A DNA stretch of 64,000 bases from Candidatus Krumholzibacteriia bacterium (GTDB taxonomy: Bacteria; Krumholzibacteriota; Krumholzibacteriia; JAJRXK01), in assembly GCA_041484665.1 (NCBI GenBank), contig JBGPIA010000006.1, positions 161,468 to 225,467 on the forward strand. The letters run 5' to 3'. The position numbers were made by a program. Position 1 is the first letter of the stretch, and each line of letters opens with the position of its first letter. Of the stretch, positions 30,001 to 39,000 are shown one piece after another.

Positions 30001-33000
30001 GCCCTCCACCCTGCTCCCCCCGCGCGGCGAACCCATCGCCGTGATCGCCGCCGACCCCGATACCGCCCGCGCGATCGCGGCCCACCTCTGCGCGCGGGGC
30101 TACGAGGCCGGCTATCTGGACGGACCGTTGCCCGCCACGGCGCTGAAGCCAGGGCTGTCCGGTGGGGCGCTCTGGCGGGCGGATGCCTGGCTGCGCCGGA
30201 GCGCCGATCTGCTCCCACCCCCGGGGGCCGGGCCGATCGCCGACCTGGGAGGCGGGAGCGGACGCAACTCGGTTTGGCTCGCCCGGCGGGGCTACCGGGC
30301 GTTAGTGGTGGACCGCCTGCCCGACGCCCTCGACCTGGCGCGGGACCGGGCGAGCCGCCATCGCGTCACGATCGAGACCTTTCGCGCTGACCTGCGCCGG
30401 CCCGGGGCGTTGCGCGGCCGCGGCCCATTCGCAGCCGCACTGTTGATCCGATTTCTGTTGCCACAGGTGCTCGATGAGCTGCCGGAGCTGCTTCTGCCGG
30501 ACGGCATCGTCATACTGCGTTGTTTCCATGTTCCGGACCCAGGGGCGTCGGCGATGGCCCCGGGAATCGCACCCGCGACTGAGCTTGGCCGTGCTCCCGG
30601 TGCTGCCACCCGCAGTGCTCCCACTGCTGCCACCCGCAGCGCTGCCGGTCCTGCTCCTCGTGCTGCTCGCAGTACGGCGCCTGGTGCACTGCCCGGCCAC
30701 GTGCCCGCCGGTGCCCTCCCCCGCCCGCCCCGAACGCGACACGGCCTCCCGGTGCCCGACTTGCTCGTGCGCTTCAACCGGCCCCGATGGGAGCTGCTGC
30801 TCCCTCCCACCGCGGGGGTGGAAGGCGGCCACCGGCTGGTGGGCCTGGTGGCCCGGCTGCGCGGCTGACCGACAGCTTGGGGCGGCGCGCGCGGCGCGCA
30901 ACGGGCGTCCGGCATCCTCGCGACGCGCTCGCGGTACCTCCGCCACGCTCCAGCGGCGCTCGCTTCCCGGATTTTTCTTGCGGGCCGCGCTGCGCTCTTG
31001 CATCGCATCGCGCGCTTGATATCATGTGCCGCGACGCTCTGGGTGGCGAGGCAACGACGTCTTGCCACGGTATGCGGAGCGACCCCTCAGCGTGCCCCGC
31101 CCATCGATGCCGCGTGAGGGGAAGGAGGAGTGAGCAGCCCGTCTTCGCCACCCCCGGGCCCGCACGTGCAACGCGTCGCTGGCCACTCGGGTAGCAGACC
31201 GTTCCCAACTTGCCTCCTGATTTCAACGTGCTGACGCGGACAAGTGGTCATTTGCATCCACTGCGCGCAGCGGGCCGCGTGCAGCACGGGGGAACGGACT
31301 GAGAAGGCCGGGCACAGGGACTCTCGACGAGCGCTCGTAGCCCAAGCAGTTCCGGGTTGCGCTCATGGGAGTAACCGCCGTCTGACCGAGCCCCACGTAC
31401 CTCGGCTAGCCCCTGCGGCCCAACGCAACGCCGAAAACCGAATCCGTCCCACTGCACTCACGCAGTCGGCCAGCCACCGAGCGCCTTCGGTTTCCCCGTG
31501 GGCGTTGCGGCGGTGGCCAGGGATTCCAGACATCGACCGACCCAGGAGGCCAAGGAGGTCATGGAACCGACGACTACCGAGGAAGCGAGCAGCAAGCCCC
31601 CAAGTACCGAGCTCTCCCGGCTCGCGGAGAATCCCGGGCGGGAGCACTACTATCCCGGCGTCAGTGACGAAGAGTGGAACGACTGGCGCTGGCAGTTCCG
31701 TCATCGCGTTACGACACTGGCCGAGCTCGCTCGCTTCTTCCCGGTGTCGGCCACCGAAGGCCGGATGATCCGCGAGGTCCTGCACGACTTCCGGATGGGG
31801 ATCACCCCCTACTATCTATCCCTCATCCAGCCGGGCAATCCCGACGACCCGATCCTGCGCCAGATCGTCCCCCATCAGGACGAGTACACCTACCGCGAGG
31901 TGGGCGACGAGGACCCCCTCGGCGAGGAGCAGTACTCGCCGGTCCCGGGGATCACGCACCGCTACCCGGACCGCGTGCTGATGGTGATCTCCAACTCGTG
32001 CGCGGTGTACTGCCGCTACTGCACGCGCAAGCGGATCATGTACGAGGGAGCGGTCCCCGACGTCGAGATCGACAGCATGGTGGAGTACATCGCTCGCACG
32101 CCGGTCGTGCGCGACGTGGTGATCTCGGGCGGCGACCCCATGACCTACTCCACGCCAAAGCTCGAGCGGATCATCGCCAAGCTGCGGGCGATCCCGCACC
32201 TGGAGATCATCCGCATCGGCACGCGCGTCCCGGTTTCGCTTCCGCAGCGCGTGGACGACGAGCTGTGCGCGATGCTCTCGAAGTACCACCCGCTGTGGGT
32301 CAACGTGCACTTCAACCATCCGGCCGAGTGCACGCCCGATGCCGCACGCGCCTGCGACAAGCTCTCGCGGGCGGGCATCCCGCTGAACAACCAGTCGGTG
32401 CTGCTGAGGGGGATCAACGACACCGTCGCCACGATGAAGGCCCTGGTGCACGGGCTGATGAAGATGCGCGTGCGGCCCTACTACCTGTACCTGTGCGATC
32501 CGGTGCGCGGAACCGAGCACCTGCGGACGCCCATCTCGACGGGCATCGAGGTCATGGAGGGCCTGCGCGGGCACACCAGCGGCCTGGCGATCCCGCATCT
32601 CGTGATCGACGCACCTGGCGGCGGCGGCAAGATCCCCGTGGGGCCGAACTACCTGCTGCACTACGACCAGCGCTCGGGTACGGCCATCCTGCGCAACTAC
32701 CAGAATCGGATCTTCGAGTACAAGGAGCCGCGATTGCAGCCTTCGCTGGCGGACGCGATCTCACCGGGGGCGGGAGCCGGGGCGGGAAGCAGTGCGAACG
32801 GCGGCGCCGGCAAGAGCAACGGGAACGGTCGCGGCACCGGCAAGGCCACCGGGAGCGGGTCCGCCAGGAGCAATGGCTCGGCCGTGGCCGGGCTGGCGGC
32901 GGACCTCAAGTCCGGCGCGCGCAAGCGGCCGGGCAAGAAGGTCGTGGGCAAGAGCGGATGGGTCCACGATGGCAGCTCGCTCGCGCCGGCGCGCGGGCCC

Positions 33001-36000: not shown

Positions 36001-39000
36001 TACGCTTGCTTCGGGATCGCGCCGCTGACCGATGGCGTCTACGACCTTTACTGGATCGCTGTGGATCCCGCGCTGCACGGGCGCAGCATCGGACAGGCGA
36101 TCCTGCAGGAGGTGGAGCGGCGCGTACGCGACGCAGGCGGCCGCATGGTGCTCCTGGAGACGGCCGGCAAGCCGTCGTACGCTGCGACGCGCGCATTCTA
36201 CGAGCGCGCCGGCTACATCGAAATCGCGCGCATCCCGGATTTCTACCGCGTGGGCGACGACAAGATCGTGTACGCCCGGCGGGTGTTCCGGTAAGCCTGG
36301 CGCCCCCCTCGCCGGGGCGCTCCTCCCCGTGACCCGGCGCCGGGCTCGGTTGGGGGGTCCACCCCGGGGAGGGCTGGGTCCGGCCCCAGCCCGACGATCC
36401 TTTTCACCCATCCCCACAGAGCCAACCGGGCGCTTGTCGAGCCGTCCGCGGGGCCTCAGCGGCCCACCAGAGGGCCCCGGAATGTGCTAGATTTATCACA
36501 CGATTCCTGAGGCTCCCCCGGCGGGCGCGGTCCATCGCTGGCCTGCGCCGTCGAGGGCCCCAGCACTCTCGCTTCCTCCCAGGACGTGCTCCTATTGAAC
36601 CTTTGCTCCTTCAAGGAGAAGGCGATGTTGTCCTTGTGTCGTGTACCCCTCACCGACCGACTCCACTCGCACTCCGCTGACCGTATTGGATGGTCGCCCC
36701 TGGATCGCGCATCGGCGCTTTGGGGCAGCGAATTACGCGGCCGTGGCAGCGAAACAGCTCCCCACGGCGCCGAACGGACTCCCCCAGGGGGGGGAGTCGC
36801 CCAATTTGGGGTGGTACCGGGGTTGATGCTCGCCGTGCTCGTCACGGCATGCTCCCTGGTCGCCGCTCCCCCCGTCTGCGCCGCCTCGCACGCCGCCGGG
36901 GCCGCTAGCCCGGTCGGGATCGGCGCGGCCTCCCGGGCCGGCGGGCGCAGCGCAGCACCCATGGTTCGCGACGTCGGCAGGGTGCCGTCGCCACGCGCCC
37001 TGCCAGAGGACAGCCAGCCTCCCGAGGTCCTTGTCCTGCAGCCGGCTGGCGGCGAGGAATGGCTGCTGGGCTCCATCCAGACGATCCGTTGGTCGGCCGT
37101 CGATGACTCGCTCGTGACCTCCGTCGACGTGGACCTGGCGCGTGACGGCGTCAATTTCGCGGACGTGGTGGCGCGGGACATCCCCAATAGCGGCGCCCTG
37201 GAGTGGACGGTCACCCCACCCGTCACCGGCAGTGCGCGCGTGCGCGTGCGGGCGAAGGACGTGGCGGGCAACATTGGTGTCGGCATCAGCGCCGCGCCCT
37301 TCGGCATCACCCTGGACGAGCCGCTCTACAGCGCCTGGACCCTCTCCGTACTCGAGGGCGAGACCATCGTGGCGCAGGTCGACCCGCGCCGCGGGGCGTG
37401 GGCTGCCGTCGAGACGCTCAGCATCAACATGCACGACCCCCAGCTCGCGGGGGGCCCGCTGGGGGACAATTTCTACCTCCTCACAAAGACACGCCGCTAC
37501 CCGGCCAACCTGCTCACGCTGAGTAACCACAGCGGCGAGATCATGCACTCGGCGCCAATCGCCTTCCCGGCCGGGTTGGTCGGGCTCGCCGCCAGCCCCC
37601 TCGACGGCGTCGTTTATTCGACGGTGCGCACGAGCTTCAATCAGCAACTCGTCACCCTCGACCCGGTGACGGGGCTGCACACGTTCGTGGGGCCGCTGGT
37701 GTTCTCGCCAAATGAGCCGGGTGTGGGCGTCGACGTCCTTGCGTTCTCGCAAGAGGGCGGGCTCTACGGCGCGCAGTACCATTCCTCGCACGAGGAGGTG
37801 GAGCTCTGGCGCATCGATCCGCTCACGCTTGATGCATCGCTCATCTCCGCCTACCCCAACGGCCCGTACGCCGTGAGCGGTCTGGCATTCCTGGGCGATG
37901 AGCTGTGGATGGTGGACGATCAAGACGGCCTGGCGGTGCGTCTGGATCCGCAGACGGGCGAGCAGCTCGCCGTCAACCAGTTCGCCCAGTACATGCTGCA
38001 GGGGCTCGCGCCCCACGCCTGCCTGGCCTCTTCCCCCTATCTGCACGCTGCGGACGCCCCCAACGACGGTGGCGGCCATATCGACTTCGAGTGGACGGGT
38101 TACGTTCCGCCTCCGACAACCGTCCGGCTGGAGGTCGTCCGGGCGCTCGATGCTTGCGAGCTGACCGACCCGGGATTGCCGGCCCTGATCACGCTGGACG
38201 TCAGCGATCCTGCCCACTTCGTCGACGCGACCACGGCCGATTACACCGCGTATTACTACGGCCTGCGCGCGCTGGCGGAGGACCTGCCCAAGGGCCCGCG
38301 CATCGACGGCGGCCTCAAGACGAAGCTGCAGGTGCTCGAGACCGTCGCCACGGGACCGGCGTTCTCCTTCCCCAATCTGCTCATCAACGAGTTCGCGCCG
38401 GCCGGGGGGATCCCCAAGACAGGGCGCTCGGCGTCCGGGACGGGCGAGGGGGCGGGCCAGGGGGTGGGTCAGAGGGCAGGCGACGGGTCCGCGGCCGGGC
38501 CGCAAAAGATCGGCGAGCAGGTGGAGATTCGCAATCTCGCGAGCACCGACCTCGATCTGACGGGCTTCCGTCTGAGCAACGGGCCCGGTGATCCCACGCC
38601 CGACGAGGAGACGTTGACGGGCATCGTGCCGGCGGGCGGGCTGTTCGTTCACACGCTCGGGATCATCTCGCTGCCCGACGCGGGAGGGACCCTGGCGCTG
38701 CTGCCGCCGGCGGGCACGGCCTTCCAGCTCGACATCGTGGCGTACGGAACCCAAGGCGGCGCCCCGACCGCGCCGGCGGGCTTCACGGTCAACCGGGTGC
38801 CCGGTACGGGCCGCAACGATCCCAACGCAGCGAGCTTCGAGACCGGTGCGCCCAGCTTCGGGGCGGAGAACAGCGTGGCCACGCCGGCGCTGGGGCAGTC
38901 GATCGTCCTCAACGAGGTGGTCTACACCAGCCAGGTGGGCGGCAATTACGTCGAGCTCTACAACCCCCAAGGCAGCGCGGTGGTGCTGGACCACTTCGCG

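Follow-up and report, generated by a model that had tools for sequence, protein, structure and literature searches.

A recurrent cassette of a KamA-family aminomutase, two Ddl-fold ATP-grasp ligases, and a small GNAT acetyltransferase as a candidate pathway to a beta-lysine amide

The 64,000-nucleotide stretch of the Candidatus Krumholzibacteriia bacterium genome analyzed here (the window) contains four intact ORFs on the + strand, encoding a KamA-family aminomutase, two ATP-grasp ligases (L1 and L2), and a GNAT acetyltransferase. The features are as follows:

31561..33285, + strand: KamA, 574 aa; core at residues 1 to 391, then a low-complexity tail of ~180 aa
32941..32967, + strand: VVGKSGWVH motif in the KamA tail, residues 461 to 469
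33296..34285, + strand: ligase L1, 329 aa; Ddl-fold ATP-grasp amide ligase
34286..34523, no strand: L1-L2 spacer, 238 nt
34524..35702, + strand: ligase L2, 392 aa; second Ddl-fold ATP-grasp paralogue
35608..36294, + strand: small GNAT of the 2R7H family with an insertion of ~45 aa; 228 aa from the proposed start

The preliminary description had the four genes head to tail on one strand. Their strand and content agree with this, but the spacing does not: 10 nt separate KamA from L1, 238 nt separate L1 from L2, and L2 overlaps the GNAT gene. Judged from the sequence, the most likely GNAT start is the ATG at 35608, which would give a protein of 228 aa and an overlap of 95 nt with L2; GGAGG lies upstream of this ATG, and three relatives start similarly, with M-x-S-S-S. 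GGAGG was also identified upstream of the KamA ORF. The spacer has GC contents of 0.72/0.65/0.67 by position, that is, no codon periodicity, and neither an Rfam family nor a conserved counterpart was found for it. The NCBIfam scores reported earlier were reproduced, except that GNAT scored 40.4 rather than 40.8 with the RimI model.

KamA passes the cut-off of the KamA family model TIGR00238 (353.7 bits) and scores 257.6 with the EpmB model (cut-off, 369). All three equivalog models remained below their cut-offs: lysine (TIGR03820; 473.7 versus 525.4, with model positions 3 to 362 of 417 matched), glutamate (TIGR04368; 433.5 versus 650), and arginine (TIGR04468; 394.7 over the full model versus 600). 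The lysine model was the best equivalog for all nine KamA relatives tested, one of which passed its cut-off and eight of which missed it. The best PDB match is lysine 2,3-aminomutase 2A5H (452.9 bits), and residues C147/151/154 (CxxxCxxC), R156, D313, D350, and K357 correspond to C125/129/132, R134, D293, D330, and K337 of that structure. Among 55 KamA relatives, the CxxxCxxC motif, the PLP lysine K357 (K337), and R156 (Arg134) are kept in 55, 54, and 55, respectively, and D313 and D350 are kept in all 55. Asp293 and Asp330 bind the lysine side-chain amine, and in glutamate 2,3-aminomutase these two aspartates are replaced. Because the lysine-binding aspartates are retained in KamA, its product is likely to be beta-lysine, and the enzyme is most likely a lysine-type 2,3-aminomutase. 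The earlier choice among beta-lysine, beta-arginine, and beta-glutamate is thereby narrowed, with beta-glutamate disfavored by the same aspartates. The VVGKSGWVH motif stands inside an otherwise unconserved tail; [VI]VGKSxW occurs in 13 of the 109 KamA ORFs taken from the loci, and each of these 13 is a close relative of the KamA in the window.

The predicted structure of L1 (AlphaFold pLDDT, 96.2) has the Ddl fold (Foldseek TMq of 0.81 to DdlB; VIA Z of 31.6 and rmsd of 2.6 over 299 aligned residues to DdlA), and the protein-modifying ligases of the RimK/LysX type share it at Z values of 22 to 25. L2 is 34% identical to L1; its model (pLDDT, 90.1), for which the best Foldseek matches are also Ddl, includes a low-confidence insertion of ~43 aa at about residues 290 to 332. 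In the best Ddl subfamily model, L1 and L2 score 168.2 and 121.0 bits, respectively, against a family cut-off of 243. The ATP/Mg residues of the fold are present in both ligases: K109, K147, E187, E194, R272, D274, E287, and N289 are invariant in L1, and K113, K154, E194, E201, K239, R284, D286, and N340 are invariant in L2, with W240, N342, and G350 as L2-specific invariants. The D-Ala site, in contrast, is not kept, as the GGxSxERE motif is absent from both and His63 is replaced by Glu in 71/71 L1 and 50/50 L2 sequences. This replacement is no marker of beta-lysine, because y4sG has the same change. A role for y4sG itself is not supported: y4sG branches apart from the clades of L1 and L2 (SH-aLRT, 98 to 100, in a quick tree), shows 33% identity, and has a CapA gene and transposases as neighbors, no KamA being annotated at a distance of up to 8 kb. 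Some fused relatives of the ligases are named "D-alanine-D-alanine ligase" in databases.

At both the donor and the acceptor substrate sites, L1 carries additional invariant acidic residues (D22, E26, D28, E73, E81, E89, D99, and D300 are acidic in 61/61), and these are not present in L2. Invariant Asp300 maps to the loop that, in Ddl, holds the carboxylate of the acceptor; this placement comes from sequence alignments, which disagree by one position, and not from coordinates. At the Ddl Ser281-Leu282 position, L1 has Asp300 and L2 has Ala or Gly. We propose that L1 activates beta-lysine.

GNAT has the Pfam domain PF00583 and matches PDB entry 2R7H with an E value of 8e-32, the next match having an E value of 0.003. 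Its best curated model, that of the protein acetyltransferase RimI, is far under the cut-off, and the similarity to N-terminal acetyltransferases is weak, as are matches to streptothricin acetyltransferase in 3 of 30 GNATs. Conserved acidic (E30, E36, D39, D123, E161, and D188) and aromatic (F26, Y49, Y125, and W126) residues were identified (numbering of the alignment of GNAT relatives). Among 115 longer GNAT relatives, 42 are fused to L2 and 72 to a deacetylase whose catalytic motifs are intact, so that acetylase and deacetylase are joined in one polypeptide. The best structures for this deacetylase are acetylpolyamine amidohydrolases (244 bits versus 124 for HDAH-type enzymes), which deacetylate acetylspermidine, acetylputrescine, and acetylcadaverine, as described in parts of PMC11532494 and PMC4784309. 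Seven of 16 fetched regions have the deacetylase alongside KamA-L1-L2-GNAT, and an L2 match was present in 15 of 16 genomes with the deacetylase versus 86 of 285 (30%) without it, kin among these genomes not being independent. The deacetylase is absent from 159 of 160 scanned loci and was not found in the genome of the window, where a generic HDAC (50 bits) was the sole match. Given that fusion partners of the GNAT family include deacetylases of the acetylpolyamine amidohydrolase type, the acceptor looks cationic and unlike an ordinary amino acid.

The recurrence of the gene string, noted previously, was confirmed far above chance in two sets assembled in this analysis, one consisting of 80 genome loci retrieved with L1 and the other of 80 metagenome loci retrieved with L2. 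In the former, KamA (within 8 kb), L2, and GNAT are present in 61, 54, and 39 loci, respectively, and 29 loci have the order KamA-L1-L2-GNAT; in the latter, KamA, L1, and GNAT are present in 56, 55, and 39 loci. The loci span more than 10 phyla, and the full cassette was also identified in a record labelled archaeon (locus L024). No partner is more constant than KamA. In the best 150 L1 representatives, fusions join L1 to L2 (17 cases), KamA to L1 (2 cases), and L1 to KamA (1 case), and 7 of 80 loci contain an L2-GNAT fusion. L2 is also present in each of the 39 genome loci that carry GNAT. Of the five genomes with loci of KamA and L1 only (MAGs of unstated completeness), four show neither an L2-type ligase nor GNAT; in the fifth, L2 and GNAT occur together at another site. 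The distance matrices of the four proteins correlate (Spearman, 0.43 to 0.69; 22 loci; 0/999 permutations), with values inflated by shared ancestry, and in the two nearest families, KamA and L1 are both present in 8 and both absent in 9 of 17 genomes.

Three known routes fail to account for the cassette in this genome. AblA/AblB had been called the only characterised route, but EpmA/EpmB and epsilon-poly-beta-lysine synthetase are further fates of beta-lysine (parts of PMC12856214 and PMC10522769). AblB (TIGR03827) matched neither the cassette GNAT nor any other protein in this 93.65% complete genome, the search control being positive. Beta-lysylation of EF-P fails as well, as the EF-P loop PGNWRG is without the tip lysine, EpmA is absent, and EpmB is below its cut-off; the best genX-model match does not reach the cut-off and resembles a lysyl-tRNA synthetase. 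A cell wall role of L1 and L2 is contradicted by a separate canonical Ddl (273.2 versus the cut-off of 243) that keeps the D-Ala site residues. Lysine 5,6-aminomutase gave no match in the genome, with the search control equally silent. Searches of an open-access library gave no description of this cassette.

The best explanation of these observations is that the cassette is a self-contained, horizontally spread pathway to a small polycationic (polyamine-like) beta-lysine amide. KamA would very probably turn L-lysine into beta-lysine, and L1 would phosphorylate its carboxylate with ATP and couple it to an amine acceptor, which could be a second beta-lysine or lysine or a di- or polyamine; KamA and L1 would form the core module. 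L2 might then make a second amide on the L1 product, and GNAT would acetylate a terminal primary amine. In some lineages, a deacetylase of the acetylpolyamine amidohydrolase type encoded in the same operon would remove the acetyl group, and acetylation may adjust how much charge the compound carries and the size of its pool, as with polyamines. We give this reading, with its two amide-forming steps and the reversible acetylation of a polyamine-like product, a probability of about one-half. Weighing against it are the missed lysine cut-off of KamA, the absence of the deacetylase from this genome and from nearly all scanned loci, the RimI model as the best curated match of GNAT, and the lack of a recurring gene for polyamine synthesis or transport beside the cassette. 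More tentatively, the product could belong to an unrecognised class of lysine-derived polyamine analogues (a diamine carrying a beta-lysyl amide, or a short oligomer of beta-lysine) with a charge switched by a dedicated acetylase/deacetylase pair. The ribosome-independent route to an acetylated beta-amino-acid amide suggested in the preliminary description is thus supported by fusions, coinheritance, intact catalytic residues, and the failure here of the cell wall and EF-P roles, whereas its ordinary amino acid acceptor seems less fitting than a cationic one.

Parts of this scheme have counterparts elsewhere. In PylB/PylC, the product of a radical-SAM lysine mutase goes to an ATP-grasp ligase, which makes an amide to a lysine side-chain amine; PylC (4FFL) shares the fold of L1 (Z, 18.1; rmsd, 3.2; 244 aligned residues), but is far more distant from it than Ddl, and that system has another mutase reaction, one ligase, and no acetyltransferase. 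Ddl/Van enzymes are nearest in fold to L1 and L2, with all ATP/Mg catalytic residues in common, although both substrate sites are remodelled in the cassette ligases. Ngg joins GNAT and ATP-grasp domains. Like the cassette, Ngg/AsnO, which makes the dipeptide osmolyte NAGGN, combines a nonribosomal peptide bond with N-acetylation to give a small solute (part of PMC8070244), but it works with glutamine and an amidotransferase and lacks an aminomutase, where the cassette has two Ddl-type ligases and a beta-lysine source. AblA/AblB (kamA-ablB), which makes N-epsilon-acetyl-beta-lysine as an osmolyte, likewise has lysine 2,3-aminomutase and a GNAT in one operon (part of PMC11337218); the cassette GNAT, however, is small, of the 2R7H family, and travels with L2, and the two ligases are extra. 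Polyamine N-acetyltransferase/acetylpolyamine amidohydrolase pairs acetylate primary amines reversibly, the relatives' deacetylase being of this subfamily (PMC11532494 and PMC4784309, in part), but the known pairs act on standard polyamines, whereas here a beta-lysine source and two amide ligases go with them. Actinomycetes make KamA-fed cationic beta-lysine amides, the kind of product proposed here, but with adenylation/NRPS-type enzymes instead of ATP-grasp ligases, according to part of PMC10522769.

A near-neutral beta-peptide osmolyte resembling NAGGN, made by joining beta-lysine to one or two neutral or acidic amino acids with N-acetylation, possibly as the first step, is plausible in view of Ngg, which acetylates glutamine and forms a peptide bond (part of PMC8070244), and of the salt-induced osmolyte N-epsilon-acetyl-beta-lysine (part of PMC11337218). 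Amino acids are the usual substrates joined by Ddl-fold enzymes, and L2 is without the extra acidic residues of L1. We nevertheless consider it unlikely, given the polyamine-type deacetylase partner, the residues of both ligases at the Ser281-Leu282 position, and the lack of a recurring osmolyte transporter or amidotransferase across the 160 loci, asparagine-synthase-type amidotransferases being absent from the operon as well. The fold shared with RimK/LysX-type ligases, the faint RimI and N-terminal-acetyltransferase similarity of GNAT, and the lysine-bearing motif kept in the KamA tails of one clade would suit ligases that put beta-lysine on a macromolecule (protein, lipid, or cell wall precursor) capped by GNAT. 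This is improbable, however, with a canonical Ddl encoded separately, an EF-P without the tip lysine, a strong genX-model match only to a lysyl-tRNA synthetase-like protein, the full cassette in an archaeon-labelled record, and no Mur, Van, or small target gene recurring nearby (ORFs of <90 to 100 aa were outside the clustering).

It is quite improbable that the ligases serve salvage or homeostasis, conjugating beta-lysine to excess polyamines or processing external N-acetyl-beta-lysine for storage or breakdown, so that the conjugate is not an end product. In its favor, gamma-glutamylation opens polyamine catabolism in Pseudomonas aeruginosa (part of PMC4784309), acetylase and deacetylase share one polypeptide, and a DmpA/S58 peptidase adjoins myxobacterial tandem L1-like fusions in 5 loci. 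Yet the most constant partner is KamA, the supplier of beta-lysine; no oxidase, transaminase, or transporter recurs; AblB occurs in just 1 of 16 deacetylase-bearing genomes, and its overlap with the cassette is limited to 2 of 11 genomes; and lysine 5,6-aminomutase was unmatched, though with a silent control. An aminomutase acting on arginine or another basic amino acid, yielding a beta-arginine peptide with GNAT as self-protection, would be compatible with the acidic binding residues, the missed lysine cut-off, and the streptothricin acetyltransferase matches. It appears highly improbable, as KamA comes closer to the lysine cut-off (473.7 of 525, with part of the model unmatched) than to the arginine one (394.7 of 600, full length), one relative passes the lysine cut-off, and no exporter recurs.

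The polyamine-like beta-lysine amide pathway, if correct, would represent a widespread new cationic metabolite and would provide two ligases accepting beta-amino acids, useful for enzymatic beta-peptide synthesis. It accounts for many KamA genes without an AblB or EpmA partner and offers a testable pathway for two large Ddl-like ligase clades and for the structural-genomics GNAT 2R7H; with four soluble enzymes and common substrates, it is simple to test. The ligase module is present in 101 of 301 genomes sampled from one deltaproteobacterial phylum. Because about one-third of these genomes carry the ligases, the polyamine-analogue product, if real, would be frequent in these and other little-cultured bacteria yet so far unreported.

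The four genes of the cassette, which encode a KamA-type aminomutase, two ATP-grasp ligases (L1 and L2) resembling D-Ala-D-Ala ligase (Ddl), and a GNAT acetyltransferase, are each intact in the window:

31561-33285, + strand, KamA, intact gene
33296-34285, + strand, ligase L1, intact gene
34524-35702, + strand, ligase L2, intact gene
35608 (ATG, probable start)-36294, + strand, GNAT, intact gene, with GGAGG ahead of the start

The gaps between KamA and L1 and between L1 and L2 are 10 nt and 238 nt, respectively, and GNAT, taken from the ATG at 35608 that is probably its start, shares 95 nt with the end of L2. 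Third-position GC is 0.83-0.91 in each gene, in agreement with coding DNA in a GC-rich region. The NCBIfam scores given for the cassette proteins in the preliminary description were reproduced. Neither a sigma-70 promoter nor a terminator was found at the window cassette, and the sigma-54 consensus was absent there; this consensus matched 10 of 119 upstream regions. Rfam identified no leader RNA family in the window region, where the single match, to a miRNA model (E 0.24), was regarded as chance, or in eight related loci, which gave one tRNA only. The region upstream of the cassette had no convincing BLAST match in other loci, and the flanking genes in the window (methyltransferase, HD protein, and large secreted FlgD-type protein) were not recurrent in related loci. 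Window positions 20184 to 28431 hold LigB-type and amidinotransferase/DDAH-like genes, followed by genes for an ECF sigma factor, a zinc-finger anti-sigma factor, a CHAT/TPR protein, and an S8 protease.

Among 80 genome loci fetched with L1, KamA was present in 61, L2 in 54, and GNAT in 39, and the exact order KamA-L1-L2-GNAT was seen in 29. An L2 profile retrieved 80 metagenome loci, which contained KamA (56 loci), L1 (55 loci), and GNAT (39 loci), with the order L1-L2-GNAT-KamA in 23; many of the fetched loci are short, which makes gene absences soft. KamA-type genes occurred elsewhere in 10/10 genomes whose locus was without KamA, which is weak support, since such genes are common. Record titles of the loci name Planctomycetota, Myxococcota, Bacillota, Verrucomicrobiota, Spirochaetota, Acidobacteriota, Pseudomonadota, WOR-3, and Kryptoniota, as well as one archaeon. 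A strong L1 was detected in 8 of 41 genomes of the class of the present genome, and in its two nearest families KamA and L1 were jointly present in eight genomes and jointly missing in nine. The identity of the window L1 to its best matches, mostly from planctomycete and myxobacterial metagenome-assembled genomes (MAGs), is 57-67%, but that to L1 copies of its own class is only 38-44%, which suggests a separate horizontal gain.

In the 160 loci no fifth conserved neighbor was found, the exceptions being a two-component pair of the sigma-54 type and synteny specific to single clades. Loci L019, L099, L104, L113, L116, L127, L129, L132, L148, L155, and L167 carry, between L1 and KamA-L2, an insertion encoding a histidine kinase with a PAS domain, a response regulator of the sigma-54 type, and a small receiver protein; no GNAT was seen in these loci. 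In WOR-3 and related loci (L030, L036, L037:6778-8001, L038, and L063), an ORF of ~400 aa lies beside L1; it had no Pfam or NCBIfam match, and the Atlas gave a weak RtcB lead (13% of the members of one cluster).

Gene fusions link the cassette members. Of the 150 representatives that matched the L1 profile best, 17 are L1~L2 fusions, two are KamA~L1 fusions, and one is an L1~KamA fusion; L2~GNAT fusions occurred in 7/80 genome loci. A quick tree of 63 rows selected from the ligase set separated L1 and L2 into two clades, each with an SH-aLRT of 98, whose subgroups match. In the 22 loci that carry all four as separate proteins, the distances among the four are correlated; shared ancestry inflates the correlation. 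L2 was present in every GNAT-bearing genome locus. Of the five loci with KamA and L1 only, four come from genomes (MAGs of unstated completeness) in which neither an L2-type ligase nor GNAT was seen, and the fifth genome has L2 and GNAT together on a different contig. KamA and L1 thus look like a core module, with L2 and GNAT as an extension, and the pathway order KamA, L1, L2, GNAT is suggested. Myxobacterial two-domain ligases were rejected as L1-L2 fusions, as the tree puts both halves in the L1 clade. The myxobacterial tandem L1-like ligases (L066, L067, L072, and L075-L080) adjoin hemB and DUF1015 genes, with a DmpA/S58 peptidase in five loci, and KamA was not found within the fetched DNA; in many tandem representatives (e.g., P0057, P0058, and P0080) the N-terminal ligase domain is decayed yet retained.

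The window KamA is the only KamA-family gene of the present genome, and its sole PDB match is lysine 2,3-aminomutase 2A5H (452.9 bits). The cluster cysteines and the equivalents of Arg134, Asp293, and Asp330 are conserved in 55/55 KamA relatives and that of the PLP lysine in 54/55; the two aspartates bind the side chain of lysine and are replaced in glutamate 2,3-aminomutase. A VVGKSxWVH motif (window 32941-32967; KamA residues 461-469) lies inside Asn/Gly/Ala-rich, otherwise unalignable tails. This type of motif is confined to one clade (13/109 KamA ORFs) and is possibly a docking or modification site. In Solirubrobacterales (L007:6459-8000 and L014:3422-4975), L1 is paired with a highly divergent KamA-like protein (~30% identity) that scores under all cut-offs; its PLP-lysine motif is changed in L007.

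Predicted structures of L1 and L2 are confident Ddl-type ATP-grasp folds, and since the ATP/Mg and catalytic residues are retained, both should, judging from their sequences, be active enzymes in the present genome. Compared with Escherichia coli DdlB, the D-Ala sites are rebuilt, with Glu replacing His63 in both ligases, a reading that calls for caution as y4sG, the best Swiss-Prot match of both, also has this Glu. L1 has an extra E-[FY]-D motif, and its D22, E26, D28, E73, E81, E89, D99, and D300 are acidic in 61/61 sequences. D300 maps, with alignments disagreeing by one position, to the Ser281-Leu282 loop of Ddl, where the acceptor carboxylate is held. These acidic sites would suit a donor with two amino groups and an acceptor that carries an amine. 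The extra acids of L1 are missing from L2, whose own invariants are W240, N342, and G350, suggesting that the substrates of L2 differ. Membership of y4sG was rejected, as it falls outside both ligase clades in the quick tree and adjoins a CapA gene; it lies (L083, pNGR234a 207279-208289) upstream of this CapA-family gene, among transposases, and its rhizobial plasmid relatives form their own ligase clade. Contig C25 of the present genome carries a lone C-terminal fragment (~90 aa; L082:8408-8848, - strand) that is apparently left over from a third Ddl-like ligase.

GNAT, a member of the 2R7H family with conserved acidic and aromatic residues, is the best clue to the pathway product. Among 7,999 scored candidates, 115 were longer GNAT relatives. 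The fusion partner is a zinc deacetylase whose motifs are intact in 72 of them and L2 in 42; one is of another kind. The nearest structures to the deacetylase are acetylpolyamine amidohydrolases (244-208 bits, versus 124 bits for the HDAH type), which remove acetyl groups from acetylspermidine, -putrescine, and -cadaverine (PMC11532494 and PMC4784309). In a sample of 301 genomes of the phylum to which genome G045 belongs, an L2 profile matched 101, a few perhaps as L1-type cross-matches. The deacetylase was found in 16 of the 301; an L2 match was present in 15/16 of these versus 86/285 others, kin not being independent, and AblB in 1/16 only. In 7 of 16 fetched regions the deacetylase lies within a KamA-L1-L2-GNAT cassette, in three of them fused to GNAT. 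It surfaced through the fusion search only and not through the neighbor survey; as none of this type was found in the present genome and just 1/160 scanned loci has one nearby, it is an optional fifth member. A ~580-aa protein (loci L215-L217, L219, L221, L223, and L230; proteins P0155-P0257) joins a GNAT-like N-terminal domain (no Pfam match on record) to an acetylpolyamine amidohydrolase; fusion with the cassette GNAT, giving ~750 aa, is frequent, and in some deltaproteobacterial genomes the protein is the product of a fifth cassette gene.

In the pathway that we propose, the aminomutase would convert lysine to beta-lysine, L1 would form an acyl-phosphate and then an amide with an acceptor bearing an amine, a second amide would be added by L2, and GNAT would acetylate a terminal amine, reversibly in some lineages, with a polyamine-like cation as the end product. 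All of these chemical steps we infer, and the probability of the polyamine-like beta-lysine amide pathway is about 0.5; some type of small beta-lysine amide is quite likely. Beta-lysine amides of the epsilon-poly-beta-lysine type are treated in PMC10522769. Because the present genome carries a gene of the deoxyhypusine-synthase family, a polyamine might be on hand as the acceptor, but this does not discriminate between the readings.

In its working, the cassette resembles AblA/AblB (PMC11337218) and Ngg (PMC8070244) combined. A neutral beta-peptide osmolyte like NAGGN is a doubtful product, and AblA/AblB membership was rejected, AblB not being found in the present genome. Modification of a macromolecule appears rather improbable. 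A cell-wall Ddl role for L1 and L2 was rejected because the genome has a separate, canonical Ddl (contig C9) that scores above the family cut-off, and so was EF-P modification by EpmA/B (described in PMC12856214): the EF-P of this genome (L089, C15:51277-51819) has PGNWRG at its loop tip, with no modifiable lysine or arginine, and the best genX-model match reads as LysRS. A salvage or homeostasis module is quite improbable; lysine 5,6-aminomutase was not found in the present genome, but the search control was silent. Beta-arginine chemistry is very improbable: the lysine NCBIfam model was the top scorer for 9/9 KamA relatives tested, one of which passed its cut-off.

The polyamine-like pathway would work in a manner similar to PylB/PylC, whereas the cassette falls outside AblA/AblB, Ngg/AsnO, EpmA/B, and Ddl as these are defined. 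No description of it was found in searches of open-access main texts; gene-neighborhood tables in supplements could bear on its novelty, and a 2009 survey of amidoligase gene neighborhoods could mention it. PMC13674229 and PMC12361552 were not relevant to it. The cassette is a real, widespread, and uncharacterized pathway assembled from known enzyme types.
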